In this document: positions 8,052 to 56,872 of the stretch, one piece after another
Layout: every line of letters begins with the position of its first letter
Numbering within the stretch: position 1 is the stretch's first letter
Assembly: GCA_016934035.1 (NCBI GenBank)
Contig: JAFGTP010000069.1
Coordinates: forward strand, 6,073-70,072
Source: Fidelibacterota bacterium
GTDB taxonomy: Bacteria; Fidelibacterota; UBA2242; JAFGTP01
Direction of reading: 5' to 3'
Length of the DNA: 64,000 nt
Notes under the pieces: generated by a model
Told to the model about the DNA's origin: nothing
The model's input: only the letters and a program-made list of their open reading frames with translations
The model's database searches: none
Program-made: the position numbers and the translations under genes

Positions 8052-8083
8052 ATTTCCCCAAAATTAAAAAACTAAAACAATGG

Positions 8084-9519: not shown

Positions 9520-9540
9520 AATATCCTCGTTTTATTCGGA

Positions 9541-36022: not shown

Positions 36023-36046
36023 TTTTTTTACGGATCAAGATTTTAT

Positions 36047-36085
36047 AAAACCTCGCCGGATGGAAATTCCCGCGAGGTTTTTTTT
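36047..36085 (+). terminator. Rho-independent terminator after pepC
   Basis: aaaacctcgc...gcgaggtttt followed by a T8 run (36078-36085). Confidence 0.65.
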
Positions 36086-36637
36086 ACGGCCTGTTTTCTT
36101 AATGACGATGAATACTGCAGATGCTGGCTTTTGATTCCACAGGTCGCACTTCGTGACGGAAATGATGCACTGGCAGGAACTCTCCGCCAGGGCATGCCGC
36201 TCAGCCGCCGGAATAGGAGTCTGAACCTGTGATTTGCAGCTATAAAACTGAAATGGATATGGGGAATTTCTAACTGGATTTCAGAATTAGTTCTTTTAAT
36301 TTTAAATAAAATACGATAAAATCTGACATTATTTGAATGGAAACGATATTGTGAGGTGTGGGTAATGTTCGCATTCACTTTTTATTTAGATGCTAAAGTA
36401 AATAAATTTAATATAGAATAGACGCAATGCGTATATAATGAGTTGTGGGCAAGGCTAAAAAGACAGAAACGACATGAAAAAAATGTTTGCCAAAAAAGAA
36501 AATAAAAAGCCATCTCACATTGCACACATTTGCAAATTGCACGAGCCACCCAAATACCTAAATTTGCCAAAGAGTGCAATTTTTGCCTGCGCTCAACTGA
36601 ATATGAATAGACAACAATATAAATTGGAATTGAATTA

Positions 36638-39265
36638 ATGAAATTATCACTCGCACGATTAGAGACCTTCTTGGAAGAAGCATGTGAAAGCTTACGTGGA
36701 AACATGGATGCTTCAGAATATAAGGAATACATTATTGCCATGTTATTCCTGAAAAGAGTAAATGACCAGTTTGAAGTTCATCGCGAAACAAGAAGAAAAA
36801 ATCTTGTTGAAAAAAGAAATATAACAAACCCCGAAATACTCTACACTGAATTAGAACGAGAAAACGCACCGGAATACGATTTCTTTGTTCCCATCGCTGC
36901 CCGATGGAAAAAGTTTGAAGGCGACCCTGAAACAGACGAAGATGGAAATACAATCAATTACATAAAAGACTTACAGGAAGAAATTGGCGACCACCTGAAT
37001 ATCGCACTTGCTGCTTTAGAAGATGCCAACCTTGACAAACTAGACGGTGTTTTAAAATCCATCAACTTTAATCGCAGTATCGGTAAAAACAATAAACAAA
37101 TTACCGACGAAGATTTACGGGAACTGATTCGGGAGTTCAACAAAAAGAAACTCACAGACAACAATCTGGAATTTCCTGACTTGATGGGAGCCGCTTACGA
37201 ATACCTGATTAAATACTTTGCCGACAGTGCCGGTAAAAAAGCCGGAGAATTCTACACACCCAACGAAGTCGTGCGTTTACTGGTAAATATTCTGGAACCT
37301 GCCGAAGATGCCGAGATTTACGACCCAACAGTTGGTAGTGGCGGCATGTTGATTGAAAGTAAAAACTATGTGGAAAGTCGCTATGGTTCTGCCCGAAACC
37401 TTTCGCTGTATGGACAGGAGAAAAGCGGCACGGTTTGGAGTTTAAGTAAAATGAACATGCTGTTCCACGGCATTTATGACAGCAACATTGTTAACGGCGA
37501 TACACTGATGAATCCCTTGCATAAAAAACAAGGTGAATTACAAACTTTTGACATTGTGATTGCCAATCCGCCTTTCTCGCAAAACTACAGCAAAGACGGC
37601 ATGAAGTTCAAAGAACGTTTTAATCATTGGATGCCTGTGAAAGGCAAAGCCGATTTTATGTTCGTGCAGCATATGGTGGCTTCTACCAACAATGCCGGAC
37701 GTATGGCAGTAGTGATGCCTCACGGTGTATTGTTCCGCGGTGGTGAAGAACGCGAATTCCGCAAATGGCTCATCAACAAAGGCTATCTGGAAGCAGTCAT
37801 TGGCATGCCACCGGGCTTGTTTTACGGAACCGGAATTCCGGCTTCTGTAATTGTAGTAAATAAAAAAGATGCCCACCTGCGTGAAAATATATTGTTCATC
37901 AATGCCGACCGTGAATACAAAGAAGGTAAAAACCAGAATAAACTGCGCCCCGAAGACATTGAGAAAATCTCTTTTGTGTATAAGCACAAAGAACAGATTG
38001 ATAAATACAGCCGTTTGGTGAGCAAACAAGAACTGGCAGATGAAGAGTACAACCTGAACATCCGCCGCTTTGTGGACAATGCCCCGCCTGCCGAATCCCA
38101 CGACGTACATGCCCATTTAAAAGGTGGTATTCCTATAGATGAAGTGGATGCCTTGAATCATGCGTTTTCATCGTATCCCGGACTACGCGATAAACTGTTT
38201 ACCGAATCAAAAGAAAACTACTTGCGTTTTACCGATGCCGTTGCAGAAAAAGAAGATATTAAAAAACTACTGGACGAAAGCCCCGAAGTACAAACCACGT
38301 TTGCTAATTACACAAAAGGGTTGGAAAAATGGTGGAGCGAGGCCGTTGTTGATTTTAAAAAACTGCCCGAAGAAAACAACGTGTTTGAATTGTATGGCAA
38401 ATTTTCCGACAGCTTTGCACAAGCTCTTTTCAGTTTGCCTTTTGGTGAAGAGAACAATGGTGCAATACTGGACAAATATCAAAGCCACGGCGCGTTGGCT
38501 GCTTATTGGGACGAACTGAAAACCGACCTGAAAAGTGTGGCTGCCAGCGGCTGGAATGCCGAACTGATACCCGATGATGAAATTCTGCAAAGCCAGTTCC
38601 CCGAAGTGCTGAAAGAACTGCACGACAACCAAAACCGCAAGGAAGAACTGGACGCCCTGTTTGCCGAAGTAAACGAACTGGAAGAAGGCCTTTGGACCGA
38701 AGAAGAATACGATGTGTGGCCCAAAACCGAACTCAAAGAGCACAAAGATGCCATTAAAGCCGATAAGGGCGAACTGCGAGAACTAACCAAGGAAATCAAA
38801 AATCTGAACCGCAGGATAGCCGCCTATAAAAAAGCCGGGCAGGAAAAAGGTAGAGACGCATTACAATGCGTCTCCAATGTTAAGACGCGATTCATCGCGT
38901 CTCAACGATTATCAGAACAAATTGCCGCTGATGAAGCCCGTTTTGCCAAACACAGTGAGTTAGAAGCCGAACTGCGCGAATGCAAAAAAGTAATCAAGCA
39001 GATAAAAGACCGCAAACAGCAACTGGTGGATGAAGCCCGCTTAAAAATAACACCCGAAGAAGCCAAAGACTTAATTCTTGACCGCTGGAACCGTACCCTG
39101 CACCAGACCATATACGGCTACCTGCAGGCCCATACCCGCCAACTGCTGCAAAACATTGAAAAACTGTGGGACAAATACACCACTACCCTAAGCAGCATTT
39201 TAAGCAAGCGCGAAGAAGAAACCCAATTACTCAACCAATTCTTACATGAACTCGGCTATGAATAA
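36638..39265 (+). CDS. hsdM: Type I restriction-modification system methyltransferase subunit HsdM, with a long coiled-coil C-terminal extension
   Basis: 875 aa. It has an HsdM_N-like start (..[20 protein letters not shown]..), the SAM motif [12 protein letters not shown] and the catalytic IVIANPPFS motif. About 390 aa of charged helical sequence lie after the MTase core. Confidence 0.92.
38853..38902. repeat. Two adjacent perfect hairpin repeats (AGACGC-N-GCGTCT cores) inside the hsdM reading frame
   Basis: The first hairpin is gagacgcatt-ac-aatgcgtctc (38853-38874; 10-bp stem). The second is agacgcgat-tc-atcgcgtct (38883-38902; 9-bp stem). They are translated in frame as ..[19 protein letters not shown].. 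Confidence 0.7.
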
Positions 39266-39279
39266 AATAAGGAAAACAA

Positions 39280-39389
39280 GTCTGAATACTTCGGCAGTCT
39301 CAGCACAAAGCCTTGATTCAATCGGATTGCAGGCTTGCCATGATATCGAATCATGTAATCAGGAAAATCAGGAAAATCATGGTTCAGAC
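39280..39389. repeat. 110-bp insert-like segment bounded by 7-bp inverted repeats (GTCTGAA...TTCAGAC) in the hsdM-hsdS spacer
   Basis: gtctgaa at 39280-39286 and ttcagac at 39383-39389. An internal direct repeat, atcaggaaa x2, lies at about 39358-39375. No coding potential is evident. Confidence 0.4.
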
Positions 39390-39417
39390 ATTTTTAACGG
39401 AGTTGGGCTATGAGTGA
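39385..39417 (+). pseudogene. Vestigial 3' end of a second (replaced) hsdM allele overlapping the hsdS start
   Basis: Frame 39385-39417 reads QTFLTELGYE-stop. The intact hsdM ends QFLHELGYE-stop (39236-39265). Nucleotide differences are mostly at synonymous positions. The relic stop TGA (39415-39417) lies 3 nt past the hsdS ATG (39410-39412). Confidence 0.55.
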
Positions 39418-40729
39418 GTGGAAAGAAAGTAAATTAAAAGAGGTAGTTGATATTCGGGTAAGTAATGTTGATAAAAAGATTTATCCAAATAAGAGTTTAG
39501 TTAAACTTTGTAATTACATGGATGTTTATAAAAATGATTACATATCTTCTAAAATATCATTTATAAATGGTTCAGCAGATAAAAATGAGATTTTACGATT
39601 TGGATTACAAATCAATGATGTAATTATTACTAAAGATTCTGAAACACCTGATGATATTGCAGTTTCTTCAGTCGTGTCTGAGAAAATTGAGAATCTTGTT
39701 TGTGGTTATCATTTGGCAATTCTTAGACCGAATCAGGATGAAGTTGATGGCAGATTTTTAATGTTTATGTTCAAGTTACCAGCAATAAAAAACTATTTTT
39801 TTAGTGTAGCAAATGGTAGTACAAGATATGGGCTTACAATTGGAAATATTGAAAATGCTAAATTAAGGTTTCCACCCCTTCCCACCCAACGCCGCATCGC
39901 CCGCATCCTGTCCACCGCCGATGCGGTGATCGAAAAAACACAAGCCGCCATTGCCAAATACAAAGCCATCAAACAAGGCATGCTGCAGGATTTGTTTACC
40001 CGCGGCATCGACACCCAAACTAGCAAACTGCGCCCCAAATACCAAGACGCCCCGGAACTCTATAAAGAAAGCAAACTGGGCTGGATTCCGAAGGAGTGGG
40101 AAGTGGAAATATTTGGAGAACAAGTAGAATTAGTTCACGGTCATCAATTTAGAAATTATGATTTTACAGAATTTGGTTTTCCTATTGTTAAGATAGGACA
40201 AGTAAAACCTGAAAATTTAAATTTAAGTGATTGTTCATGCGTCTCTTTTGATAGGATAGATGAATTTATAAATGAGATTATTGGTAACGGCGATGTGCTT
40301 ATGGCTCTTACAGGAGCCACACTTGGAAAGGCTTGTTTAGTGCATGGTCTGAATGGAATAGTACTTCAAAACTATCGTGTTGGTAGGTTTGAACCAAAAA
40401 TTAGAGAAAAAGATATTGATAAAACATTCCTATACTACATATTAATTGCTGGTGAACTACTGAATCAAATTTTCAGCAAAGTAAATTCTGGTGCACAAGG
40501 CAATATTGGTAAAGCAGATTTTGAGAAGGCAACTTTCAAAAAACCTAAATTCAACGAGCAACTACTAATTGCTCAAAGATTGCAATCAATCGATAATAAA
40601 ATCCAAACCGAACAAACCTACCTGCACAAATTGCAGCAGATAAAAGCCGGTTTAATGGCTGATTTGCTCAATGGGAAGAAAGAAGTAATTATAACTGATC
40701 AAGAAATTTTAACAGAAAGAAATAATTAA
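39410..40729 (+). CDS. hsdS: Type I restriction-modification system specificity subunit HsdS (two TRDs + two conserved repeats)
   Basis: 439 aa. The conserved central region is ..LRFPPLPTQRRIARILSTADAVIEKTQAAIAKYKAIKQGMLQDLFTRGI.. The C-terminal repeat is ..EQLLIAQRLQSIDNKIQTEQTYLHKLQQIKAGLMADLLNGK.. Confidence 0.9.
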   Translation: MSEWKESKLKEVVDIRVSNVDKKIYPNKSLVKLCNYMDVYKNDYISSKISFINGSADKNEILRFGLQINDVIITKDSETPDDIAVSSVVSEKIENLVCGYHLAILRPNQDEVDGRFLMFMFKLPAIKNYFFSVANGSTRYGLTIGNIENAKLRFPPLPTQRRIARILSTADAVIEKTQAAIAKYKAIKQGMLQDLFTRGIDTQTSKLRPKYQDAPELYKESKLGWIPKEWEVEIFGEQVELVHGHQFRNYDFTEFGFPIVKIGQVKPENLNLSDCSCVSFDRIDEFINEIIGNGDVLMALTGATLGKACLVHGLNGIVLQNYRVGRFEPKIREKDIDKTFLYYILIAGELLNQIFSKVNSGAQGNIGKADFEKATFKKPKFNEQLLIAQRLQSIDNKIQTEQTYLHKLQQIKAGLMADLLNGKKEVIITDQEILTERNN

Positions 40730-40730
40730 A

Positions 40731-42449
40731 ATGACCAATATTTCAAGTGGTTTAAAGTCAATAAACGAACTTCTGAATTACGATTTTTTCATACCTTACT
40801 ATCAACGTGGCTTTCGTTGGGATAACAACCAGGTAAATGATCTTTTAAATGACATTTATGATTTCTATAAAAAGAAGAAATTATCAGAAAATGAGTTCTA
40901 TTGTTTACAACCCATTGTTGTTACACCAACTGATGGGAAATATACTTTAATCGATGGACAGCAACGTCTAACGACTATTTATATTATCATGGCTGTGTTA
41001 GATGAAGTGATGAGAATGTTAGGCAAAACCAAGTTTTCACTTGAATATCAAACCAGAGAAGATAGCGAAGTGTTTCTTAAAGACATCGACTACATAAAAA
41101 GAGATGATAATATAGATTACTTCCACATGTGCCAAGCTAAAGAAACGATTGAAGATTGGTTTTCAAAAAAAGACGGTGGGGTAAAAGTAAATCTTTTAAA
41201 CACACTCTTAAATGAAGAAGGAAATAATGTTCGGATTATATGGTATGAAGTTGATAGTACGATCGATCCAATTAATCTTTTTACCAATTTAAATATGGGG
41301 AAAATACCTCTGACAAACGCAGAATTGATTAAGGCTCTTTTTCTGAATAGAGATAATTTTATTGATGAGAAAAATGAGAAAGCCAAACAATTACGCCAAC
41401 TTGAAATTGCGTCCGATTGGGACAGAATAGAACAAACGTTGCGAGAAGAGGAATTTTGGTATTTTCTACAAGATGACAATAATCATTATGATAATCATAT
41501 AGAAATTATCTTCGACCTAATCTCAGAAAATATGGTTAAAAGAGGCACAAAAGAACATTACGACAAATATTATACATTTAGATTTTTCCATGAAAAATTT
41601 AAACAAAAATCAGATATTGAAGAAAATTGGAAGGAAATTAAAAATTATTTTCAAACCTTTAGAGACTGGTTTAAAAATAAAGAACTTTACCATTTAATTG
41701 GATTTTTAATTACTACGGATGTTAGTTTGAAATATCTGTATGAAGAATCAAAAATACACACGAAGAAAGAATTTAAAAAGTTTTTAATAGAAGCAGTAAA
41801 AAAACAAATTAGTTCAGTTAAAATAGAAGAACTCACATATCAGGAAGATAAAAGTGTTTTAAGAAATGTTCTCTTACTATTTAATATTGTGACTATTTTA
41901 CAAAATGAAAAAACTAATTTGAGATTCCAATTCGGAAGATACAAAAACGAAAATTGGGATATAGAACATATTCACGCTGTAAAATCGGAGATGCCCACTT
42001 CAAGAGTTGAGCAATTAGACTGGCTGAGGCAAGTTAAGGATTATACTGATGATTCAGATTTGCTCAAGCAAGTGACCGATTATCTGGAAACTCAAGCGCA
42101 AGATAGAAAATATGATTTTGAAGAACTGTACGATTTAGTAATAAAAAAATATAGCGAAGAAGGAAGAGATGAAGATATTAATGATATTTCAAATCTTACT
42201 TTACTCGATTCGGGAACAAACCGTGGATATAAAAATGCTGTATTTCCAATTAAAAGGAAAACAATTATCGAAAAGGATGAGACCGGCACATTTATTCCCC
42301 TCTGTACAAAAAATGTATTTCTTAAATATTATACAAGAAAGCTGGAACAGATGAGTCTATTGGGAAAAGAAGACAGAATGGCATATAAAACAATTCTTGT
42401 GAAAACTATAAATGATTTTTTAAACCTTAACAATAAAACAGAAGAATAA
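40731..42449 (+). CDS. GmrSD-family protein (N-terminal DUF262 ParB-like NTPase domain + C-terminal DUF1524 His-Me-finger nuclease domain)
   Basis: 572 aa. DUF262 motifs are FIPYYQRGFRW, LIDGQQRLTT (40953-) and FTNLNMGKIPLTNAELIKA. DUF1524-like motifs are NWDIEHIHA (about 41955-41978) and NLTLLDSGTNRGYKN. The ATG lies 1 nt after the hsdS stop. Confidence 0.8.
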   Translation: MTNISSGLKSINELLNYDFFIPYYQRGFRWDNNQVNDLLNDIYDFYKKKKLSENEFYCLQPIVVTPTDGKYTLIDGQQRLTTIYIIMAVLDEVMRMLGKTKFSLEYQTREDSEVFLKDIDYIKRDDNIDYFHMCQAKETIEDWFSKKDGGVKVNLLNTLLNEEGNNVRIIWYEVDSTIDPINLFTNLNMGKIPLTNAELIKALFLNRDNFIDEKNEKAKQLRQLEIASDWDRIEQTLREEEFWYFLQDDNNHYDNHIEIIFDLISENMVKRGTKEHYDKYYTFRFFHEKFKQKSDIEENWKEIKNYFQTFRDWFKNKELYHLIGFLITTDVSLKYLYEESKIHTKKEFKKFLIEAVKKQISSVKIEELTYQEDKSVLRNVLLLFNIVTILQNEKTNLRFQFGRYKNENWDIEHIHAVKSEMPTSRVEQLDWLRQVKDYTDDSDLLKQVTDYLETQAQDRKYDFEELYDLVIKKYSEEGRDEDINDISNLTLLDSGTNRGYKNAVFPIKRKTIIEKDETGTFIPLCTKNVFLKYYTRKLEQMSLLGKEDRMAYKTILVKTINDFLNLNNKTEE

Positions 42450-42450
42450 T

Positions 42451-44682
42451 ATGAGAAACATCGGTAAAAAAACCAGTTTTTTTGAGATATTTGATAAAGG
42501 AAATCAAAAAGTTGAAATCCCTATAATTCAGAGAGACTACGCACAAGGTAGGATTTCGGAAATCGAAGTGCGAATTAATTTTCTGAAGTCAATAAAAAAA
42601 AGTTTTGAATCTAATGAGCCAATACATCTTGACTTTATATATGGTAGTATTGAGAATAATGTTTTTATCCCGCTTGATGGTCAACAGCGATTAACTACTT
42701 TGTTTCTTTTGCACTGGTATTTAGCAGCAAGAGAAGAAAGATTAGAAGAATTCAATAAGATATTTAGAAAAGACAATGAGTCACGTTTTACTTATGAGAC
42801 CAGGATATCATCAAGAGAGTTTTGCAATGCTTTGGTATCAAATAAGATTGAATTTCCAAAGAGTAAAGATGAATTTATAAGTGAGATAATAAAGGACTCA
42901 TCCTGGTATTTCATGTCGTGGGATAACGACCCAACAATTTCTGCTATGCTCATCATGTTGGATTCAATACATAATCTGTTTTTTGATATAACTGATAAAT
43001 ATGACAAATTAATAGATCCTGGACAATTTATTAGTTTTCAGTTTATTGAGTTAAAAGATTTTGGTTTAAGCGATGAACTTTACATAAAAATGAATGCACG
43101 GGGTAAAGAGCTAACATATTTTGAAAACTTCAAAGCGAAATTTTCTAAAATCCTGGAGCAACAAGACAATGAGAACGGTACTTCTCTAAAGGATGAATTT
43201 TCAATTAAAATCGATACATGCTGGACAGATTTGTTTTGGCCCTTTAAGGATCCTTCAACAAATATTATAGATGATAAAATAATGAATCTGATCCGGGTTA
43301 TTATTACAAATTATTATTCACTCCGCGATGATGTTGATTTTCATGTAATAAATGAATTGACCAATAATAAAGTAAAATATTCATACTATAAATATGAAGA
43401 ACTAAGTTGTTTTGATGAGGTGACTAATAAATATATCATTGCTTATTTAAATTGCTTATTAGGAGAAAATAATGTATTTCGGTATTACTTGGAAGATAAG
43501 GGTTTAGTGGATGAGTTGGGAATATTTAAAAACGTTATTAACCATAATATATCATATCCAGTTAGAATTCAGTTTTACGCATTGTATCAATATTTAATTG
43601 AAGGATATTCAAAAGAACAATTGTTTGACTGGATGAGAGTCATAAGGAATTTGACAGAAAATACACGCATTGATGAAATAAAAGATTATATCGATGCTCT
43701 TAGATCTGTTAGTATGCTCCTTAACCAAAGTGAAAATATCCTTGAATACTTAACCGATAATAACAATGAAGTCAGTGGTTTTTCTACAATCCAGGTAAAA
43801 GAAGAAAGAATAAAGGCAATTCTATTATTAAGAGATGATAATTGGAGAGAAGCAATTATTGATATTGAGAATCATACCTATTTTTATGGTCAAATCGGTT
43901 TCTTACTGAATTTCTCCAAAATAGAAGATTACTTTGAAACAGACCATACGCTGAATTGGTCTGTAGATGAAAACGACAAATATTTTGAAGAATTTAAAAT
44001 TACTATCGATAAAGCGAAATCTGTATTTAATGAAAATGGTATTAATGACTTTAATGATTTTATTTTTGAACGGGCTTTACTAAGTATTGGTGATTATTTG
44101 TTGAGGAAAGGAAGTAACCGTAGTTTTGGAATAAATGGAAAAGAAAGAGATATTAGTTGGAAACGGTTACTCCGCGATAATGATAGAAGCCGTGATTACC
44201 TTAGAGTTCTTTTTTCGAAAATAAGCAGTGATTCTGTTTTTGATGATTTGAAAACTATTATTCAAAATTCAGATATAAATGATTGGAGAAGGTATTTTAT
44301 AGAATTTCCGGAACTTATATCAGTCTGCGGTTACAATAAATACATTAGGTTTAATAGTGAAAAAGACATATTACTTTTAGAAAAAACACAGACAAATGGT
44401 AGGCATAGGGAATATTACACTTACGCTCTTGCTACCCGGCTTAGGAAAGCTGAGAATTCAGTAAACTATATTAAAGGGTATTCTGTTGACCATTTTAAGT
44501 ATATCAAAAGGATAAATAATATTAGTGTAGATATCAAATTTGATTATTTTTATGATCGTGGCCGTTGTTATAAAATTGAATACAATAAAGAAGTGTACTT
44601 CTTTGATGACGATATTGAAATATTAGACTTCTTATTAAAAAATCAAATTATTAAAACTAATTCAACTTACGAGGGTAAGTAA
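42451..44682 (+). CDS. DUF262-domain protein with a large unassigned C-terminal region (divergent GmrSD-family paralog?)
   Basis: 743 aa. DUF262 motifs are EIPIIQRDYAQGR, PLDGQQRLTT (42676-) and YIKMNARGKELTYFENFKA. The C-terminal region of about 500 aa has no clear motif. Only a weak DIENH (43861-43875) plus LLSIGDYLLRKGSNRS trace is present. The ATG lies 1 nt after the upstream stop. Confidence 0.7.
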   Translation: MRNIGKKTSFFEIFDKGNQKVEIPIIQRDYAQGRISEIEVRINFLKSIKKSFESNEPIHLDFIYGSIENNVFIPLDGQQRLTTLFLLHWYLAAREERLEEFNKIFRKDNESRFTYETRISSREFCNALVSNKIEFPKSKDEFISEIIKDSSWYFMSWDNDPTISAMLIMLDSIHNLFFDITDKYDKLIDPGQFISFQFIELKDFGLSDELYIKMNARGKELTYFENFKAKFSKILEQQDNENGTSLKDEFSIKIDTCWTDLFWPFKDPSTNIIDDKIMNLIRVIITNYYSLRDDVDFHVINELTNNKVKYSYYKYEELSCFDEVTNKYIIAYLNCLLGENNVFRYYLEDKGLVDELGIFKNVINHNISYPVRIQFYALYQYLIEGYSKEQLFDWMRVIRNLTENTRIDEIKDYIDALRSVSMLLNQSENILEYLTDNNNEVSGFSTIQVKEERIKAILLLRDDNWREAIIDIENHTYFYGQIGFLLNFSKIEDYFETDHTLNWSVDENDKYFEEFKITIDKAKSVFNENGINDFNDFIFERALLSIGDYLLRKGSNRSFGINGKERDISWKRLLRDNDRSRDYLRVLFSKISSDSVFDDLKTIIQNSDINDWRRYFIEFPELISVCGYNKYIRFNSEKDILLLEKTQTNGRHREYYTYALATRLRKAENSVNYIKGYSVDHFKYIKRINNISVDIKFDYFYDRGRCYKIEYNKEVYFFDDDIEILDFLLKNQIIKTNSTYEGK

Positions 44683-44713
44683 AATTCCAGCTTCAAGAGA
44701 AAATATTTTATTC

Positions 44714-44746
44714 TTTGTCGTAAATATTTACTAAATTTGCGACAAA
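44714..44746. promoter_or_regulatory. Candidate operator / internal promoter region upstream of the AbiEi-like gene
   Basis: The inverted repeat tttgtcg (44714-44720) / cgacaaa (44740-44746) flanks the perfect palindrome TAAATATTTA (44721-44730). It sits in the only sizeable spacer (78 nt) inside the operon. Confidence 0.3.
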
Positions 44747-44760
44747 AATGGATACATAAA

Positions 44761-45390
44761 ATGCAAAAAAGCCTTGAAAAACAAATACTTACAAAATTCA
44801 AAAAAGCGGGACGGGGTACGCTCTTTTTCGCTGAAAATTTTCATTCACTTGGCAATACCAAAGCCGTCAATAAAACACTGGAGCGGCTGGTGGATAAGGG
44901 CGAGTTACTGCGTGTCGCAACCGGTATTTATGTCCGTCCCAAAAAAGATGCGGTTATTGGCATTATTACACCCGGAATTGAGGACATTGCCAAAGCCATT
45001 GCCAAAAGAGACCGCGCCCGAATTGTGCCCACCGGTATTTATGCCCTTAACAAACTGGGACTATCCACCCAGGTGCCTTTGAATATTGTGTACCTAACCG
45101 ATGGTGCTGCCCGGAAAATCAAGGTGGGGAAAAATACCATCACCTTTAAAAAAACCACACCCAAAAATGTTGCTGCTGTGGGAGAAATCAGCAAACTGGC
45201 TATTCAGGCGCTGCGCACGATAGGCAAAGACAATGTAACAAAAGCAGAAATAGAAAAAATTCAGACGCTGCTCAAAAAAGAAAAACCTACCCGCCTGGAA
45301 CAGGATATTCGTCTTGCCCCGGTGTGGATAAAAGAAATCATGAAACCCGTATTGGAAAATTTAACCAATGAATCAAAAAGCACTCAGTGA
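44761..45390 (+). CDS. AbiEi-like antitoxin / transcriptional regulator (DUF6088-type wHTH)
   Basis: About 209 aa from ATG 44761 (the track ORF begins at TTG 44737). ..AVNKTLERLVDKGELLRVATGIYVRP.. resembles the AbiEi N-terminal winged-helix. It overlaps the AbiEii-like gene by 23 nt. Confidence 0.6.
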   Translation: MQKSLEKQILTKFKKAGRGTLFFAENFHSLGNTKAVNKTLERLVDKGELLRVATGIYVRPKKDAVIGIITPGIEDIAKAIAKRDRARIVPTGIYALNKLGLSTQVPLNIVYLTDGAARKIKVGKNTITFKKTTPKNVAAVGEISKLAIQALRTIGKDNVTKAEIEKIQTLLKKEKPTRLEQDIRLAPVWIKEIMKPVLENLTNESKSTQ

Positions 45391-46381
45391 ATGGCTTAAA
45401 CTGCCGGACGAAACAAAAAAAAATATATTTACAGAGATCAGTAAAAAAACAGGACTGCCTGCCATTGCTGTAGAAAAGGACTGGTGGGTGGTCAAAACAC
45501 TGGAAGTGGTTTTTAATACGGATATTGCCGATCACACCGTGTTTAAAGGCGGCACATCATTAAGCAAAGCCTGGGGCCTCATCGAACGCTTTTCCGAAGA
45601 TATAGATCTGGCATTGGACAGGAAGTTTTTAGGTTTTGACAAAGAAATTACCGGCTCACAGGTAAAAAAACTGCGGCAGCATTCATTCAAGTTTATATCT
45701 GAAGAATATTATCCCAAATTAGAGGAAGCCTTTCATCATTACGGATTGACGGAAGTTGAATTGCAATTAACAGAACCTTCTGCCAATGACCAGGACCCGC
45801 TGATTATAGAAACGCACTATCCCGGACTTATCGAAAATTCAGACTACATTCATTCACGCGTCCTAATCGAAATAGGCAGCCGTTCACTAAAGGAACCATT
45901 TACCGTCAGGGAATTCAATACTATGGTGGGAGAACATTATCCGGATAAATCCTTTGCGGATTCTGTCATTTCTATACCTACCGTAAATCCGGAAAGAACA
46001 TTTCTGGAAAAAATCTTTCTGTTGCATGAAGAATTTCAAAAACCTTTAGACAGAATAAAGGTTGATCGTTTAAGCCGGCATCTGTATGATGTTGAAAAAC
46101 TGATGGATACCGAATATGCTGAAAAAGCCTTATCCGATCCAAATCTGTACAAACATCTTGTAGAACACAGACGAACCATGACACCGGTCAGGGGAATCGA
46201 TTATGCCTGTCACGCACCGACTAAAATAAATCCGGTTCCGCCTGATAATTTATTTAATGCTTGGAAAAAAGATTATTTACAAATGCAGGAAAATATGATT
46301 TATGGTGAATCCCTGCCGTTTGATAAACTTCTGGATAGAATTCGTGAGTTAAAAGAACGAATCAATAAAATAAAACTATAA
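45368..46381 (+). CDS. AbiEii/AbiGii-family nucleotidyltransferase toxin
   Basis: 337 aa. ..VFKGGTSLSKAWGLIERFSEDIDLAL.. is the hallmark NTase block of AbiEii-type toxins. RHLYDV lies in the C-terminal half. Confidence 0.8.
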   Translation: MNQKALSEWLKLPDETKKNIFTEISKKTGLPAIAVEKDWWVVKTLEVVFNTDIADHTVFKGGTSLSKAWGLIERFSEDIDLALDRKFLGFDKEITGSQVKKLRQHSFKFISEEYYPKLEEAFHHYGLTEVELQLTEPSANDQDPLIIETHYPGLIENSDYIHSRVLIEIGSRSLKEPFTVREFNTMVGEHYPDKSFADSVISIPTVNPERTFLEKIFLLHEEFQKPLDRIKVDRLSRHLYDVEKLMDTEYAEKALSDPNLYKHLVEHRRTMTPVRGIDYACHAPTKINPVPPDNLFNAWKKDYLQMQENMIYGESLPFDKLLDRIRELKERINKIKL

Positions 46382-46393
46382 GAGATAAAAATT

Positions 46394-49300
46394 ATGGCAG
46401 AATATGTTAATGTAGAAAAACCATTTTTAGATAAACTTCGCTTGTTGGGCTGGCAGGTTATCGATCAGGGCATCGGCATTCCACAGGAACCACAAAAAAG
46501 CCTGCGCGAAACTTTTAAACAAGTGGTTTTGCCCGAAGAATTTAAAAAAGCCATAAAAAAAATAAACACCACAGCCGAGGGCTCTGAATGGTTAACCGAC
46601 AGGCAGTTGGATGAACTACTGCGTGAGATTCAGAATTTCCCCGGTAAAAGCCTGCACGAAGCCAATAAAGAAATTCACCGCCTTTTGCTCAAAGGTACAT
46701 CGGTAGCCAAAAATGAACTTACAGGCGAGCAAGACCCAAGCGTGCGTTTGGTGGATTTTAAAAACTACGACAATAACTCTTTTATTGCCATAAACCAGTT
46801 TCGTTTAATCACGCCAGGAGCCAGCCGTCAGGGTATTATTCCTGATATTGTACTGTTCTTAAACGGTATGCCCATTTGTGTGGTAGAAGCCAAAGACTTT
46901 GATGTGGCAGAACCATTAAGCGAAGCATTTTTGCAGGTTACACGCTACGCCAACACTCGTGATGACGATTATGGGTATAAAGAAGGCGAAGAGCGTTTGT
47001 TTCATTACAATATGTTCAGCATCATCACCCACGGTACCGAAGCAAGGGTTGGAACCATCAGCGCCGAATTTGATTTTTACAACAACTGGGTGGACATTTT
47101 CCCCGAAGAATACAAAGTTGTGGATTTTCCGCCTGATGAAGAACGCCAGGAAGTATTGATTCATGGTATGCTGAACAAGGAAATCCTGATTGATATTCTG
47201 AAACATTTCACCCTGTTTATTGAAATCAAAAAAGGTGTGGAAGTAAAAATTGTTGCCCGTTACAATCAATACCGTGCTGTCGGCAAAATAATTAATAGTC
47301 TTCGTGCAGGTCGTACACCAATGGAAAGAGGAGGAGTGGTTTGGCATACACAGGGCAGCGGTAAAAGTCTATCCATGGTTTTTCTGATCCGAAAACTGCG
47401 TTCACTGGATGATTTGAAGGACTTAAAAATCATTTTCATTGTTGACCGAATCGATTTGGAAGACCAGCTTTCAGAAACAGCAGCCATGACCGGCGAACCT
47501 GTGAGAATCATTAGCCGAAGAAACAAACTGAACGAATTAAGCGACGACACCGGCGATGTAAATATGGTGATGATTCACAAATTTTTAGACGAGAAAAATA
47601 TTTCAGCACAATCGCTTATCGAAGCGGGCATGGTGCCAAAATTTGAAACATTTGAAACCATCAACAACAGCGATCGCATTTTATTATTGATAGATGAAGC
47701 CCACCGGACACAAGGCGGCGATATGGGTGACAATTTGTTTTCTGCTTTCCCCAATGCCACACGGATCGGTTTTACAGGAACGCCGCTTTTAACTGAACGC
47801 CACGAAATCAAAACCCATGAGCGATTTGGCGGTTTTATTGATTTCTACAAATTTGACAAAGCCGTGAAAGACCGCGCCACCGTTGAAATAAAATACATCG
47901 GAAAAGTTTCAAAAGACAAACTGGACGACAAAGATGCCTTTGATACCGAATTTGAAGATATGTTTGAAAAACAGTCTCAGGCAGAAAAAGAAGAAATTCA
48001 ACGCCGCTATGGTTCATTCATCGCTTATCTGGAATCAAAAGACCGTATTGCAAAAATTGCCAAAAACATTGTTGAGCATTATCACAAAGATATTTTGGTG
48101 AATGGTTTTAAAGCCCAGGTTGTGGCATCGAGTATTGTTGCCGCTGTACGGTATAAATATGAATTGGAAATTGCCATAAAAAATAAAATAGACGAATTAA
48201 AATCATTGCCCGAAAATGAAAAAGACAATGAACTGATCCAACAGTTGGAATTTTTGAAAGTGGCATCTATTGTGTCAAGCCTTGGCAACAACGAGCCGGG
48301 ATACATCAGCAAAGCCCGTCGTGAAGCCAAAGAAATGAATGCCATAGAGAATTTCAAAGCAGACTTTAATCCTGAAAAACCGGAAACCGGAATTGGTTTT
48401 ATCTGCGTTTGCGACCGTTTGCTTACCGGTTTTGACGCCCCGGTTGAACAGGTGATGTATTTGGATAAAAGTTTAAGAGAGCATGATTTGTTCCAGGCTA
48501 TTACGCGGGTTAACAGAACGAAACACGGTAAATCCTTTGGTTTAATTGTTGACTATTTTGGTGTAACCAAACATTTAGCAGATGCCTTAAGTATATACAC
48601 AGACAAAGACAAATTGCAATGGGAAGATTTTCAGAAAGTCTTCCGGGATGTGGATAAAGAAATTCCGATACTTGAAGCACGGTATAAACGTCTGCTCGAT
48701 TTATTTACCGGTAATAAACTCAAAGACATTGAAAAATTTCTAAAACAAAAATTCACTGACGAAATCGAAGAATTTGAGTTTGCAGAATCCTGCATTGAAA
48801 CTGCAAAGAATGTAAAATTCAGAGCAGAACTACTCACCTATACAAAAAGTTTCTTCGATAGCCTTGATTTACTTTTTAATATTCAAGCAGGAACTGAATA
48901 CTGGATTCCTGCAAAACGTTTGGGATACATTATCTGGCGAATAAAAGACCGCTACAAAGATGAAACCATGGATTTGAAATGGGCTTCTGAAAAAGTCCGA
49001 AAACTCATTGACAAACATTTGCTGTCCATAGGCATTGACACGAAAGTACAACAGGTTTCAATTCTTTCAGATGAATTTGGTAAAAAGGTGGATTACCTGA
49101 ACAAAACGCCAAAATCGAAAGCATCAGAAATGGAACATGCCATTCGCTGGCACATCAAAGTAAATCTTGAGAAAGATCCGACACTTTACAGTCATTTCAA
49201 AGACCGCCTGGAATCCATCTTAAATTCTTACAAAGAAAATTGGGAAACCATCGTTGACGAGTTGCAAAAGTTGCGCGAAGAAATGGCAGAAGGACGTAAA

Positions 49301-49606
49301 CCAACCACTCCAGGCATATCTGGAATTGAAGCACCATTTTTCGATTTGCTGAAAAGTAGCGTTAAAAGTGAGAACGAAGCAGAAATCAAGAAAACAAAAG
49401 AACTGATTCATACCTTAATGCCAATACTGCATGAAACCGCAGAAATAAGAAACTTCTGGACAAAAGCAGCGGAACGTAAAAGAGTGGAAGGATTAATTGA
49501 AGATGAAATACATTATTCAGGTGTAGAAGTGTTATCAAATAAAGCTGCTGAATTGACAACTGAACTAATGAAACTTGCCAAAAACAGAGAGTCAGACTTG
49601 AGATGA
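46394..49606 (+). CDS. hsdR: Type I restriction enzyme R subunit HsdR (nuclease + SF2 translocase)
   Basis: 1070 aa. The N-terminal PD-(D/E)xK-like region is ..PDIVLFLNGMPICVVEAK.. Walker A is HTQGSGKSLSMVF, the DEAH box is LLLIDEAHRTQ, and FTGTP and QAITRVNR motifs are present. Confidence 0.93.
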   Translation: MAEYVNVEKPFLDKLRLLGWQVIDQGIGIPQEPQKSLRETFKQVVLPEEFKKAIKKINTTAEGSEWLTDRQLDELLREIQNFPGKSLHEANKEIHRLLLKGTSVAKNELTGEQDPSVRLVDFKNYDNNSFIAINQFRLITPGASRQGIIPDIVLFLNGMPICVVEAKDFDVAEPLSEAFLQVTRYANTRDDDYGYKEGEERLFHYNMFSIITHGTEARVGTISAEFDFYNNWVDIFPEEYKVVDFPPDEERQEVLIHGMLNKEILIDILKHFTLFIEIKKGVEVKIVARYNQYRAVGKIINSLRAGRTPMERGGVVWHTQGSGKSLSMVFLIRKLRSLDDLKDLKIIFIVDRIDLEDQLSETAAMTGEPVRIISRRNKLNELSDDTGDVNMVMIHKFLDEKNISAQSLIEAGMVPKFETFETINNSDRILLLIDEAHRTQGGDMGDNLFSAFPNATRIGFTGTPLLTERHEIKTHERFGGFIDFYKFDKAVKDRATVEIKYIGKVSKDKLDDKDAFDTEFEDMFEKQSQAEKEEIQRRYGSFIAYLESKDRIAKIAKNIVEHYHKDILVNGFKAQVVASSIVAAVRYKYELEIAIKNKIDELKSLPENEKDNELIQQLEFLKVASIVSSLGNNEPGYISKARREAKEMNAIENFKADFNPEKPETGIGFICVCDRLLTGFDAPVEQVMYLDKSLREHDLFQAITRVNRTKHGKSFGLIVDYFGVTKHLADALSIYTDKDKLQWEDFQKVFRDVDKEIPILEARYKRLLDLFTGNKLKDIEKFLKQKFTDEIEEFEFAESCIETAKNVKFRAELLTYTKSFFDSLDLLFNIQAGTEYWIPAKRLGYIIWRIKDRYKDETMDLKWASEKVRKLIDKHLLSIGIDTKVQQVSILSDEFGKKVDYLNKTPKSKASEMEHAIRWHIKVNLEKDPTLYSHFKDRLESILNSYKENWETIVDELQKLREEMAEGRKPTTPGISGIEAPFFDLLKSSVKSENEAEIKKTKELIHTLMPILHETAEIRNFWTKAAERKRVEGLIEDEIHYSGVEVLSNKAAELTTELMKLAKNRESDLR

Positions 49607-50286
49607 AATTAGAAGGAATTAACATAAAAGTTGAGAAAACAGACCGCCGCAAAACGGTAAGTATTTTTATAGAACGGGATGGCTCTGTTCGGGTTTTGGC
49701 ACCTTCAACTACCAGTGATGAGAAAATTGAAGAAGCGGTAAAAGCCAGGCAATATCAAATATTTTCAAAACTCGCCAAATGGCAGGAACTCAATGAGGGT
49801 AGAGTCAACCGTAAATTTGTAAACGGTCAATCGTTTTTATACTTCGGTAGAAATTACAGACTTTCAATTGTAGAAAAACAAGATGTTCCATTAAAACTAA
49901 TAAAAGGCTACTTAATACTTGATAAAAACAAACTTGATAAAGCAGACGAAGTATTCAGGCAATTTTATAAGGAGAAAGGAAAAAAGAAAATTGAAGAACG
50001 GTTGAAATTAATTGCAGAGAAATTTGAACAAAAACCGACTTCAATTAAAGTTATGGAATTGCAAAATCGTTGGGCATCCTGGTCACCAAAACATGGGCTG
50101 AATTTTCACTGGAAATGTGCTATGGCACCTGTTCCGGTAATTGACTATATCATAACCCATGAAATGGTGCATTTAAAATATCCAAATCATTCTCCGGAAT
50201 TCTGGAACGAACTGGATAAAAAAATGCCTGACTATAAAGAATATGAAAACTGGTTAAAACAAAATGGTGTTAAAATGTCAATATAG
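49603..50286 (+). CDS. DUF45 / YgjP-like (M48-related) zinc metallohydrolase
   Basis: 227 aa. It has the HExxH motif in ITHEMVHLKYPNHSPEFW. The ATGA start/stop overlaps hsdR (49603-49606). Confidence 0.8.
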   Translation: MKLEGINIKVEKTDRRKTVSIFIERDGSVRVLAPSTTSDEKIEEAVKARQYQIFSKLAKWQELNEGRVNRKFVNGQSFLYFGRNYRLSIVEKQDVPLKLIKGYLILDKNKLDKADEVFRQFYKEKGKKKIEERLKLIAEKFEQKPTSIKVMELQNRWASWSPKHGLNFHWKCAMAPVPVIDYIITHEMVHLKYPNHSPEFWNELDKKMPDYKEYENWLKQNGVKMSI

Positions 50287-50596
50287 CCAGCCCAATTGTA
50301 GGCACATTTGCAATTCGCATGAGCCTCCGCTCAATCCTAAAATTGTAAAAGAGCCTCCAATGCCAACGCACGGCAGACAGAAACGAAGTAGCAAATTGAA
50401 AGGAAAATGACTGGAAAGTGCTTCGAAATGCCAAACGTTTCATATACGTGGCCGTTATCTACAATATCATCGCAAGAGAAAATCGCCCGGACCTCCGGCC
50501 AAGGGGCGAGAAAATTGAGTATAAAGTCATCATTTACATTGTTACTGAATATTAAATGCATAATTTTCCTTTTTAGGTAGATATAAGGTTTTTTAA

Positions 50597-50944
50597 ATGT
50601 TAATTGGAAAAATCGAAACAATGGGTTGCTGCGGTGCATACTGTGGAAAGTGCAAAGAGTTAGAAAAAAAATTATGTACCGGTTGTAAAATTGGATATCA
50701 AGATAAGAAAAGAGATATCAAAAAAGTAAAATGCAAAATTAAAAAATGTTGCATTTTGAAAAAGTTAGATTCATGTGCAGATTGCTATGAATATGACAAT
50801 TACGTAATAATAAATGAATTTTACAGTAAAAATGGCTATAAATATAAAAAATACAAAGAAGCATTGGATTTTATAAAAAAGAATGGCTATCAAACATTCT
50901 TTAAAATAACTGAAAAATGGAATATGCAATATGGAAAGTATTAA
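50597..50944 (+). CDS. Cys-rich DUF3795-like protein
   Basis: 115 aa (107 aa if translation starts at ATG 50621, MGCCGAYCGKC..). The pattern CCGAYCGKC...CTGC...KC.IKKCC...CADC is typical of DUF3795. Confidence 0.6.
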   Translation: MLIGKIETMGCCGAYCGKCKELEKKLCTGCKIGYQDKKRDIKKVKCKIKKCCILKKLDSCADCYEYDNYVIINEFYSKNGYKYKKYKEALDFIKKNGYQTFFKITEKWNMQYGKY

Positions 50945-50954
50945 GGAAAAGAAA

Positions 50955-51725
50955 ATGAAAGTAACTGCGTTTGTTGGAAGTGCTAGAAAGAAACATACTT
51001 ACAATACATGTGAAATGCTATTAGAAAAATTAAAATCCTTTGGGAATATAGAAACAGAAATTGTTTGTCTGCAAAATTTCAATTTGCAAGTTTGTAAAGG
51101 ATGCATAGCTTGTCTTGACAGAGGAGAAGAATATTGTCCCTTAACAGATGATAGAGATCTTTTAATAAATAAAATGAAAGAATCGGATGGGGTAATATTT
51201 GCCACGCCAAATTATAGTTTTAATGTATCAGCCTTAATGAAAATATTTCTTGATCGACTTGCATATTTTGGTCACAGGCCAGCATTTTTCGGAAAGACTT
51301 TTACCAGTATAGTTGTGCAAGGAATATTTGGCGGAGAGAAAATTGTTAAATATTTGGATTTTCTAGGAAATGCTATTGGATATAATGTAGTGAAAGGATC
51401 TCTTATAAAATCACTTGAACCTATGACAGAAAAGAATCAAAAGAAGAATGAAATAGCGATAGAGAAACAAGCTAAGAAGTTTTATAAACAATTGATTAAA
51501 AAAGGATTTAAAAACCCTTCTTTGCTTGAATTATTTATATTTAGAATGTCTAGAAGCAGTATAAAAACAATGTTAAATGAAAATTATAGAGATTATGAAT
51601 ATTTCAAGAAAAATGGATGGTTTGATTCAGATTTCTATTATCCAATAAAAATAAATATATTAGAAAAGATGTTTGGAGATATTTTTGATAAAATATCTGT
51701 GAAAGCTGCTAAAAACCGTAAATGA
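50955..51725 (+). CDS. Flavodoxin-like fold NAD(P)H-dependent FMN reductase / iron-sulfur flavoprotein-like protein
   Basis: The start MKVTAFVGSARKKHTYN.. is preceded by AGGA. The track ORF begins at 50931, overlapping the upstream gene. It has CKGCIACL...EYCP Cys motifs and ..SDGVIFATPNYSFNVSALMKIFLDRL.. Confidence 0.65.
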   Translation: MKVTAFVGSARKKHTYNTCEMLLEKLKSFGNIETEIVCLQNFNLQVCKGCIACLDRGEEYCPLTDDRDLLINKMKESDGVIFATPNYSFNVSALMKIFLDRLAYFGHRPAFFGKTFTSIVVQGIFGGEKIVKYLDFLGNAIGYNVVKGSLIKSLEPMTEKNQKKNEIAIEKQAKKFYKQLIKKGFKNPSLLELFIFRMSRSSIKTMLNENYRDYEYFKKNGWFDSDFYYPIKINILEKMFGDIFDKISVKAAKNRK

Positions 51726-51836
51726 TTTGTATCAATAAGAAATGATTTTAGTCCGGCCTTGGCGTTGCCGTGCGGCATGGACAAGAAGCGATGATACTGG
51801 TGGATAACAGAGGATAAAGGAGTGTGTGCTAAATTT

Positions 51837-51846
51837 GGGGGGGGGG
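51837..51846. repeat. G10 homopolymer tract in an intergenic region
   Basis: Ten consecutive G (51837-51846), immediately preceded by TAAATTTG. The tract lies 138 nt upstream of the nucleoside-hydrolase-like gene ATG. Confidence 0.9.
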
Positions 51847-51984
51847 TAAATGGTTTACCAAGTGCATCACTCGCTGGCAAGATTCCTATTGGTTGATAGG
51901 TTCGCAGCTTCGAAAACCCCAACTTTTCATACCGCCAATCGTTAGTAAGCATTTAAAAAAAAATGAATTATCAAGGATTACATC

Positions 51985-52968: not shown

Positions 52969-53075
52969 ATAAAAAACCTTTGCTGATAATCCATATCGCA
53001 ACCAGGTGTGACATTAGTAAATTCAAGGGTTGTAGTCCGCTTCGGTTGGGGAAGGTTGATAAAATCAGTGCCGGT

Positions 53076-55256: not shown

Positions 55257-55507
55257 AATGGTCCTTAATAATGCCGATAATATATGAAAAAAAATATTTA
55301 ATCCTGTTTAATTTTTAAAATATTTATAAAATTGTCCGGCAAAACAATCTGCTGATTTTTCTGACTATCTCTAGACATTAATTTTGAAAATCAGTATCAA
55401 TAACCGTGGTCTTTTTAAATGCACCGGGCAATTTTTTTCTTGAATCCTGTCGTTTCATTAAATAACTTGGATTGTTAATGGCAAATAATAATCGGAAGAG
55501 AATTATA

Positions 55508-56722: not shown

Positions 56723-56872
56723 AATAGAGAGAACACTGATGAACGAAAAATTCAAATGCCAAAGTAAACAAAAGTGGCTGGCGTTCCTTTTTCCATTATT
56801 GCCATTTCTAACATTATTTATTGAACCTTTTTAAATGGACACTGATTATTCATGCGTTAATATACATAGGGG

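Follow-up and report, generated by a model that had tools for sequence, protein, structure and literature searches.

Organization of the locus

We analysed a stretch of 64,000 nucleotides (nt) from a Fidelibacterota bacterium (GenBank assembly GCA_016934035.1, contig JAFGTP010000069.1, positions 6,073 to 70,072 of the forward strand; this whole stretch is called the window below), in which a Type I restriction-modification (R-M) operon holds additional defence genes between its specificity gene, hsdS, and its restriction gene, hsdR. The locus comprises eight open reading frames (ORFs) on the + strand, all of them full length, at positions 36638-50286 of the window. From hsdM to the last gene, DUF45, the successive gaps are 144, 1, 1, 78, -23, 12 and -4 nt, the 78-nt gap being counted from the abiEi ATG at 44761 (an alternative upstream start, TTG, is found at 44737) and the last one being an ATGA overlap. 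A first-pass annotation made from the sequence alone had described the same locus as a Type I operon used as a scaffold for further immunity modules; its ORFs, coordinates and junctions agree exactly with ours for all eight genes, and Pfam and PADLOC profile searches confirmed all of its family assignments. The features of the locus are the following:

36638-39265, + strand: hsdM, Type I N6-methyladenine (m6A) DNA methyltransferase subunit, 875 amino acids (aa)
39410-40729, + strand: hsdS, specificity subunit with two target-recognition domains, 439 aa
40731-42449, + strand: DUF262a, gene 1 of a two-gene module, 572 aa
42451-44682, + strand: DUF262b, gene 2 of the two-gene module, 743 aa
44714-44746, + strand: predicted abiE operator/promoter, a palindrome overlapping a promoter-like box
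44761-45390, + strand: abiEi, antitoxin and transcriptional autorepressor, 209 aa from the ATG
45368-46381, + strand: abiEii, DUF1814 nucleotidyltransferase toxin, 337 aa, overlapping abiEi by 23 nt
46394-49606, + strand: hsdR, restriction and translocase subunit, 1070 aa
49603-50286, + strand: DUF45, YgjP-like (SprT/M48-type) zinc metalloprotease, 227 aa

An intact Type I backbone and a coupled metalloprotease gene

The features of HsdM, HsdS and HsdR are all present, placing the locus among Type I R-M systems at the gene level. HsdM matched N6_Mtase (1.6e-102) and HsdM_N (1.1e-21) in Pfam and the PADLOC model MTase_I (1.2e-227), and its catalytic motif NPPF is intact at residue 310. HsdS matched Methylase_S in two stretches and the PADLOC model Specificity_I (1.1e-79) over positions 1-429 of the 437 in the profile. 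In HsdR, Pfam identified the domains HSDR_N, SWI2_SNF2, ResIII and T1R_D3, the TIGR00348 model gave 441 bits (cutoff 284), and the motifs GSGKS (residue 321) and DEAH (residue 434) are intact. The protein encoded by the last gene is YgjP-like (3.9e-55) with the HExxH motif in the form HEMVH at residue 186, and its homologs carry the annotation SprT family or M48 family metallopeptidase. The locus is a real and intact Type I R-M cassette with a coupled metalloprotease gene of the DUF45/SprT type.

A metagenome scan with HsdR yielded 80 related loci, nearly all of them 70-93% identical; the counts on DUF45 given here rest on 57 of these loci, and those on the junction between hsdS and hsdR on the 54 that have both genes. 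HsdM is 57-90% identical to its counterparts in the related loci, the sole exception being the divergent locus L160 (42%). DUF45 directly follows hsdR in 55 of the 57 loci, and in 49 of these 55 the two genes overlap by 4 nt, so that the coupled DUF45 gene pointed out in the first-pass annotation is a feature of nearly the whole group. DUF45 is translationally coupled to hsdR through the ATGA overlap, and from this tight coupling one may speculate that it controls HsdR or counters anti-restriction proteins. A blastn search with hsdR-DUF45 against E. coli genomes, aimed at the RRDM island of enteropathogenic E. coli (EPEC; see below), gave zero matches.

The 144-nt spacer between hsdM and hsdS (39266-39409) is atypical, these genes overlapping in 42 of 45 related loci and nearly always by 8 or 20 nt, and it may be the scar of a replacement of the hsdS allele. 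The spacer also holds a short tandem repeat, AATCAGGAA AATCAGGAA.

A related arrangement was seen in the Klebsiella pneumoniae IncF plasmid pBM343.1 (L167, NZ_CP063940.1), where a Type I locus at 5111-17000 ends with SprT/DUF45 and is followed by two adjacent DUF262 genes. As 355 Klebsiella plasmid records have a DUF45 homolog, this order may be common in clinical plasmids.

The junction between hsdS and hsdR as a slot for defence cargo

Comparison of the related loci revealed a fixed backbone, hsdM (~886 aa)-hsdS-slot-hsdR (~1079 aa)-DUF45 (227 aa), in which the junction between hsdS and hsdR is an exchangeable slot for defence cargo. No cargo is present in 21 of the 54 loci, which have a spacer of 1-17 nt between hsdS and hsdR (71 nt in one locus); the other 33 carry more than 20 different cargo architectures, which bears out the scaffold idea of the first-pass annotation. 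All cargo genes lie on the same strand as the hsd genes apart from one 65-aa ORF, and the cargo mostly ends 1-8 nt from hsdR; tight gene packing is a property of the whole hsd lineage, as seen across the 80 related loci. The cargo families include canonical single-gene GmrSD, Schlafen/AlbA_2-HATPase proteins, PD-(D/E)XK nucleases, RhuM, AbiEi/AbiEii, McrBC, AIPR, helicases and phospholipase D (PLD) nucleases. The single-gene GmrSD protein (612 aa, matched over its full length by PADLOC Orf5/HEC-06) fills the slot in six related loci. The slot content would change by recombination between the conserved flanks.

Both cargos of the window recur in other hsd slots, in agreement with a co-occurrence of the inserted genes with hsd genes elsewhere. 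AbiE is found alone in the slot of L091, L128, L142 and L152 and was partly seen in L097, L147, L161 and L162, and the DUF262 pair is found in the slots of L010, L020, L021, L050 and L137 and probably of L102. The identity of the AbiE proteins tracks that of the backbone (AbiEi 62-90%, AbiEii 64-82%, HsdR 76-93%). The DUF262 pair in the slot of L137 is only 32-33% identical to the pair of the window, which points to a separate acquisition. The window slot is a mosaic in which two independent cargo modules are stacked head to tail.

The exact four-gene stack was seen, among the related loci compared, only in the window and in the identical metagenome contig L001. An exact-sequence look-up retrieved no record for hsdM, and DUF262a was retrieved only from one 7.7-kb contig with the same gene order. 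The largest cargo seen was a seven-gene slot insert of about 9.8 kb in L094 (239-9989) and L158 (3-8620), encoding proteins of 222-633 aa, and both loci retain an intact hsdR-DUF45 despite this larger cargo. The design extends to other phyla, since an Acinetobacter johnsonii plasmid shares it in the order hsdM-hsdS-[NucS-like]-[Abi]-hsdR-SprT; a Nostoc plasmid shares it as hsdS-[DarT fragment, reverse transcriptase]-hsdR-SprT.

The DUF262 pair is a two-gene module

The first-pass annotation had listed the two genes after hsdS as two copies of a GmrSD-type gene, a description that has to be abandoned. Both proteins begin with a GmrSD_N (DUF262) domain in Pfam (DUF262a 4.5e-31; DUF262b 4.8e-21), and the motifs QR(G/D) and DGQQR are invariant in both families, with the FTRxN/KMNxRG region at least 90% conserved at some positions. 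DUF262a consists of an N-terminal DUF262 ParB-like nucleoside triphosphatase (NTPase)/sensor domain, with QR and DGQQR (residues 75-79), and a C-terminal DUF1524 His-Me nuclease domain with W409-D-x-E-H413, N488 and N497-R498. Its C-terminus, scanned alone, matched GmrSD_C (DUF1524) with 25.6 bits (cutoff 23), and its invariant motifs in 35 homologs include E-H413, N488 and N497. DUF262b has QRD, DGQQR (residues 76-80) and KMNxRG in its N-terminal domain, and neither DUF1524 nor any other nuclease domain was detected in it, the signals from Pfam, the Protein Data Bank (PDB) profile search and hhalign all stopping at residue 289.

The remaining ~450 aa of DUF262b form an orphan C-terminal region, and the AlphaFold2 (AF2) model of the protein is confident (predicted local distance difference test, pLDDT, 88.7). 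The C-terminal region gave zero matches in Pfam at E <= 10, and DUF262b gave spurious matches only in the profile search against the PDB; a whole-chain Foldseek search of the AF2 model against the PDB returned nothing below E = 0.9, the weak top matches being BrxU and the C-terminal domain of SspE. DUF262b had no match in PADLOC or NCBIfam, and no NCBIfam model matched DUF262a, AbiEii or DUF45 either. A degenerate DUF1524 domain in DUF262b was considered and rejected, as hhalign against the DUF262a family aligned residues 1-289 only, and ENH475...N556...R566, which by eye resembled a cryptic His-Me finger, was dropped after the same comparison. Searched alone, the C-terminal domain recovered 782 representatives of 50%-identity clusters (E <= 1e-10), and in full-length matches it begins near residue 300 of proteins of ~700-870 aa.

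A census of the pair, made by scanning one genome per species, found 80 loci, 70 of which had enough upstream DNA for the neighbouring gene to be identified. A DUF262a homolog directly precedes the DUF262b homolog in all 70, with a median junction of -4 nt, and this constant adjacency, together with the presence of DUF1524 in DUF262a only, indicates one obligate two-gene module rather than two enzymes. The loci belong to Bacteroidota, Clostridia, Actinomycetota, Pseudomonadota, Campylobacterota, Spirochaetota, Chlorobiota, Acidobacteriota and further groups. Over 90% of loci have the pair free-standing; among 48 well-flanked loci three are embedded in an hsd locus, L020 being a fourth according to Pfam. 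It lies between hsdS and hsdR in L010 (Psychrobacter), L020 (Flavobacterium), L021 (Maribellus) and L050 (Gillisia), with DUF45 following in L010 and L050. Its neighbours include WYL/WCX regulators and other defence genes: among the two nearest upstream genes Pfam found WYL (7), WCX (6), RNase_T (6), Methylase_S (4) and AbiEii (2), and among the two nearest downstream ones HSDR_N (4), PDDEXK_4 (3) and YgjP-like (2), the rest being scattered. The DUF262 pair is a phylum-spanning and normally autonomous two-gene unit, and its family has no characterised member, copies on plasmids being annotated merely as "DUF262 domain-containing protein".

Even the closest relatives of the window's pair lie outside hsd loci, in L165, L082 and L083, with 63-72% identity for DUF262b and 73-83% for the DUF262a partners. 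In L165 (142-4497; DUF262b 72% identical), the closest of them, a third and shorter GmrSD_N protein (378 aa) and a HEPN RiboL-PSP protein come after the pair in place of hsdR.

The AbiE module and the transcription of the locus

AbiEi matched DUF6088 in Pfam (5.8e-78) and AbiEi in PADLOC (2.7e-71), and shares 62-90% identity with the AbiEi encoded ahead of hsdR in related loci. AbiEii matched its Pfam (4.5e-34) and PADLOC (5.1e-102) models. The nucleotidyltransferase (NTase) motifs I and II of AbiE toxins have been defined as hG[GS]x9-15DhD (PMC3985639), and AbiEii carries the catalytic signature hGG-x15-DhD as FKGG-x15-DID at residues 60-81 (G62-G63 ... D79-I-D81). By its sequence, with a COG5340-type antitoxin gene upstream of a DUF1814 toxin gene bearing the NTase motifs, the module qualifies as an abiE bicistron, a toxin-antitoxin pair of type IV associated with abortive infection.

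Within the 78-nt spacer before abiEi we found a palindrome, TTTGTCGTAAAT-N9-ATTTGCGACAAA, at 44714-44746, overlapping a TAAATTTG box (TAnnTTTG-type) at 44732-44739. The palindrome is kept upstream of abiEi in seven relatives (L091, L128, L152, L142, L097/L147 and L098), and its arms co-vary (GTCGC/GCGAC, GTCAC/GTGAC, GTCCC/GGGAC); three relatives have two tandem copies and the window a single one. AbiEi is a known autoregulator that binds to inverted repeats within the abiE promoter (PMC3985639, PMC7319586). The conserved palindrome is the predicted AbiEi operator, in line with the established autorepression of abiE.

The first-pass annotation had proposed that the three defence layers may be transcribed as one unit and possibly cross-regulated. 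A terminator scan found no + strand terminator-like sites between the eight genes, and a sigma-70 promoter scan was uninformative (62 sites vs 57 expected), being unsuited to an organism of the Fibrobacterota-Chlorobiota-Bacteroidota (FCB) group without Shine-Dalgarno sites. Since abiE comes with a conserved palindromic operator of its own, which overlaps a promoter-like box, transcription of the locus as one simple unit is unlikely. A promoter ahead of hsdM would drive hsdM, hsdS and, through the 1-nt junctions, the DUF262 pair. Read-through together with the abiE promoter would drive abiEi, abiEii, hsdR and DUF45; hsdR lies 12 nt after abiEii and DUF45 overlaps hsdR by 4 nt, and this is the probable source of their transcripts. 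Of cross-regulation between the layers we found no evidence in the locus and its relatives, the DUF262 pair being free-standing in most of its loci, and the comparative results speak against an obligate coupling.

The bracketing repeat and the surroundings of the cassette

Each end of the cassette running from hsdM to DUF45 carries one copy of a conserved element of ~65 nt, the two copies being oriented alike:

36518-36581, + strand: left copy of the bracketing element, a ~65-nt two-helix palindrome, with core CACATTTGCAAATTGCACGAGCC at 36525-36547
50296-50360, + strand: right copy of the bracketing element, with core CACATTTGCAATTCGCATGAGCC at 50303-50325, 17 nt past the DUF45 stop

The core matched twice in the window with zero matches expected. 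In many relatives, which differ in their outer flanks, the element precedes hsdM and follows DUF45, and it was found at both ends in L086, L110, L113, L116, L118, L130 and others. Its two helices pair at 91% (28-46% in slid controls), both sides change in nine of the pairs and the covariation score was reached by 0 of 500 shuffles, counts that lean towards this structure because it was derived from the same related sequences. The element has no Rfam match and no obvious recombinase lies nearby. Candidate roles are those of a recombination (att-like) site, of an operator or insulator, and of paired stem-loops at messenger RNA ends.

No tRNA or integrase gene adjoins the locus, whose flanks hold ordinary chromosomal genes (peptidase, flavoprotein and type IX secretion system, T9SS), and a classic island integration is hence unsupported. 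An Rfam scan of 36-51 kb returned nothing relevant. The genes of the window have no Shine-Dalgarno sequences and a T9SS-sorted protein is encoded nearby, both of which fit an FCB-group organism. The guanine-plus-cytosine (GC) content of the DUF262 pair (30%) is the lowest in the operon, hsdM and hsdR having 40-44% and hsdS and DUF45 34-35%. We rejected GC content as proof of recent transfer, regarding it as suggestive only, since hsdS and DUF45 are low as well. Low-GC stretches (31-37%) also occur downstream of the cassette at 50300-53000, with small DUF3795-like, flavin mononucleotide (FMN)-reductase and nucleoside-hydrolase-like genes, and at 55000-57000. Upstream lie an ORF with RHS repeats (31619-32803, - strand; weak Pfam match) and very large ORFs at 9541-14028 (- strand) and at 18215-21562 and 24998-28489 (+ strand).

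Comparison with known systems

The nearest parallel for the DUF262 pair is TgvAB, a two-protein GmrSD-like Type IV system located inside a Type I cluster of Vibrio cholerae VPI-2 and found 17 times as often elsewhere as within Type I loci (PMC11411939; 10.1101/2024.04.05.588314). Neither TgvA nor TgvB is active without the other, and TgvAB by itself protects E. coli against phages with glucosylated hydroxymethylcytosine (glc-hmC), without its Type I host system (PMC11411939). As in TgvAB, two adjacent DUF262 genes lie between hsdS and hsdR of the window, both encoding DGQQR, and one protein has the DUF1524 His-Me nuclease domain while the other joins DUF262 to an unrelated C-terminus; the ratio of loci outside and inside Type I systems is also similar (~17:1 for TgvAB and ~15:1 for the window's family, from the well-flanked loci). 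Unlike in tgvAB, where the nuclease gene appears from locus tags and gene names to be the second, it comes first in the window. Membership of the pair in TgvAB (VC1767/VC1766) was rejected: TgvA, TgvB and eight homologs scored 12-72 bits against the window-family profiles, over the DUF262 domain only and with 21-30% identity, whereas true family members score 170-550 bits. The hallmark motifs of the window's family are absent from the TgvAB supplementary hit tables examined (PMC11411939). On its sequence the window's pair is a TgvAB analogue from a different family. In L028, a Flavobacterium metagenome-assembled genome, a true TgvB homolog (306-2276; 475 bits to Cytophaga TgvB) lies ~6 kb upstream of a pair of the window's family (8200-12100), which shows that the two systems are distinct and can coexist.

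The second parallel concerns the architecture of the whole locus. The EPEC RRDM island has the order rptR-hsdM-hsdS-darT-darG-hsdR-M48 metallopeptidase, is entirely under one promoter, and its site has been flagged as a likely recombination hotspot for defence systems (PMC12255303). Both loci place a toxin-antitoxin/abortive-infection module between hsdS and hsdR and a zinc metallopeptidase gene directly after hsdR, and an RRDM-like architecture is thus present in the window. The window differs in having AbiE instead of DarTG, in holding an additional second system in the slot, and in the absence of DNA similarity between its hsdR-DUF45 and any E. coli genome (blastn). It also has no + strand ORF of at least 60 aa in the 0.6 kb upstream of hsdM (36023-36637) that could correspond to RptR, a weak test as made without an RptR profile.

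Single-protein GmrSD-family enzymes often lie within the clusters of other defence systems, BREX, Hma and Type I among them. DUF262a resembles such enzymes (Eco94GmrSD, BrxU, SspE and PADLOC HEC-05/06) in joining a DUF262 NTPase/sensor domain to a DUF1524 His-Me nuclease domain, and the window differs from them in its obligate second DUF262 protein; the PADLOC models HEC-06, Orf5 and SspE match only the first ~100 residues of DUF262a and leave DUF262b unmatched. Among the neighbours of GmrSD homologs, Type I genes are the most enriched; DUF262 genes cluster near GmrSD genes, and in Campylobacter the DUF262 protein RloF, as cited there, is encoded between hsdS and hsdR (PMC4619093). Like the rloA-H genes of Campylobacter jejuni and prrC of E. 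coli, the cargo of the window consists of accessory defence genes inside a Type I operon, those being single genes of other families. We know of no stacked multi-system cargo or terminal DUF45 described for the rlo and prrC loci.

The AbiE module agrees with those of Streptococcus agalactiae and Lactococcus in its overlapping bicistron, its COG5340-type antitoxin, its DUF1814 toxin with hGGx15DhD and its promoter palindrome (PMC3985639, PMC7319586). It departs from them in the DUF6088 subfamily of its antitoxin and in lying inside a Type I operon, directly feeding hsdR. The first-pass annotation named no described system with this exact insertion plus the coupled DUF45 gene; the design itself is already described in TgvAB/VPI-2, DarTG/EPEC and RloF. 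The locus is a combinatorial variant of a documented design and brings no new principle; new are the stacking of two cargos in one slot, the uncharacterised DUF262 pair family and the bracketing repeat.

Independent modules or an integrated system

Taking these results together, we read the locus as an intact Type I cassette whose exchangeable slot between hsdS and hsdR holds two independent defence modules, a reading to which we assign a probability of roughly three in four. It is built on the gene identities and intact motifs, the conserved backbone, the variability of the cargo, the DUF262 genes as an obligate pair and the conserved abiE operator. The three layers would act independently, being joined by co-location and co-inheritance and not by physical or regulatory coupling. 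The first would be Type I restriction of unmethylated DNA. In the second, DUF262a and DUF262b would act jointly, by analogy with TgvAB, as a modification-dependent (Type IV-like) two-protein restriction nuclease cutting hypermodified phage DNA missed by the Type I enzyme, with DUF262a as the effector of a nucleoside triphosphate (NTP)-dependent nuclease and DUF262b as a co-sensor or regulator. The third would be growth arrest by AbiE, serving as a backstop. The protection of E. coli by TgvAB alone and the known RRDM island offer precedents for embedded modules that work independently.

Several points weigh against this reading. All of its functional statements are drawn from homology. The pair is distant from TgvAB, resembling it in the DUF262 domain only, so that a modified base as its target is a guess by analogy, and the C-terminal domain of DUF262b has no known relative in Pfam, PDB and fold searches. 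The promoter box before abiEi is only putative, as its consensus is of the Bacteroidota type and the host belongs to the Marinimicrobia. The tight and co-oriented cargo junctions could mean selection for co-expression, and functional coupling with the Hsd proteins could exist.

This last point leads to the strongest of the alternatives, an integrated composite system in which the embedded proteins interact physically or through regulation with the Hsd proteins and the eight genes work as one co-regulated machine; AbiE or the DUF262 pair might, for example, be set off when HsdR is stalled or inhibited, and one of the components might be processed by DUF45. The co-orientation of all the genes, their junctions of 1, 1, 12 and -4 nt, the cargo of the relatives almost always lying within 1-8 nt of hsdR, the nearly invariable coupling of DUF45 to hsdR, the position of hsdR behind an AbiEi-controlled promoter with no visible promoter spacer of its own, and the single promoter of the EPEC RRDM island (PMC12255303) would all be expected under such a system. 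Nonetheless, over 90% of the loci with the DUF262 pair have it free-standing, the same backbone occurs with nothing in its slot in 21 of 54 loci and with unrelated cargos in all others, AbiE retains its own operator, and TgvAB needs no Type I host system for its activity (PMC11411939). Moreover, no conserved cargo-specific change was found in the Hsd proteins of the related loci, and HsdR identity does not group by cargo type. We consequently regard an integrated system as improbable.

Still less credit goes to a decaying or partly silenced island, in which the insertions would disrupt hsd expression by polarity and the arrangement would be an evolutionary accident without current layered function. 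Such a history would account for the atypical hsdM-hsdS spacer where relatives have overlaps of 8 or 20 nt, for the 5.7 kb of cargo that part hsdR from hsdS, and for a four-gene stack seen once, the identical contig aside. It is contradicted by the eight full-length ORFs with NPPF, GSGKS/DEAH, DGQQR (twice), the His-Me motif, hGGx15DhD and HExxH all intact, by the absence of frameshifts and insertion sequence (IS) elements from the eight-gene locus, and by the seven-gene cargos of L094 and L158, which coexist with intact hsdR-DUF45; we judge it very unlikely. The weakest alternative, two independent single-protein GmrSD-type enzymes of differing specificity, is suggested by the intact DGQQR of both DUF262 proteins, the reported clustering of DUF262 genes near GmrSD genes (PMC4619093) and the single-gene GmrSD (612 aa) in the slot of six related loci, but with DUF262b devoid of a detectable DUF1524 or other nuclease domain, the a-then-b order and overlapping junction kept in 70 of 70 loci across many phyla, and the analogous TgvA and TgvB each inactive alone (PMC11411939), we give it the least weight of all.

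Beyond the preferred reading of an intact cassette with two independent modules in its slot, a bolder version, which we put forward only tentatively and would not bet on, is that the DUF262 pair is a new two-protein restriction system apart from TgvAB, in which the orphan C-terminal domain of DUF262b could be a new sensor or regulatory domain for a DNA modification other than glc-hmC, and that the cassette flanked by the hairpin repeat is a bounded mobile or regulatory unit.

Significance for the hsd lineage

Defence genes embedded in Type I loci were already known, two cases having been tested experimentally. What the present lineage adds is a natural cargo-swapping experiment, in which one Type I backbone of roughly 80-90% identity carries a slot that is either empty or occupied by more than 20 different defence cargos, the stacking of cargo being seen also in the Acinetobacter plasmid and in the seven-gene insert of L094 and L158. 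Three tractable subjects come out of it, namely a large two-gene DUF262 family, a near-universal DUF45/SprT metalloprotease coupled to HsdR, and a structured repeat bounding the cassette. The lineage also provides a handle for the discovery of defence genes, as anything lying between hsdS and hsdR-DUF45 is a candidate immune gene.

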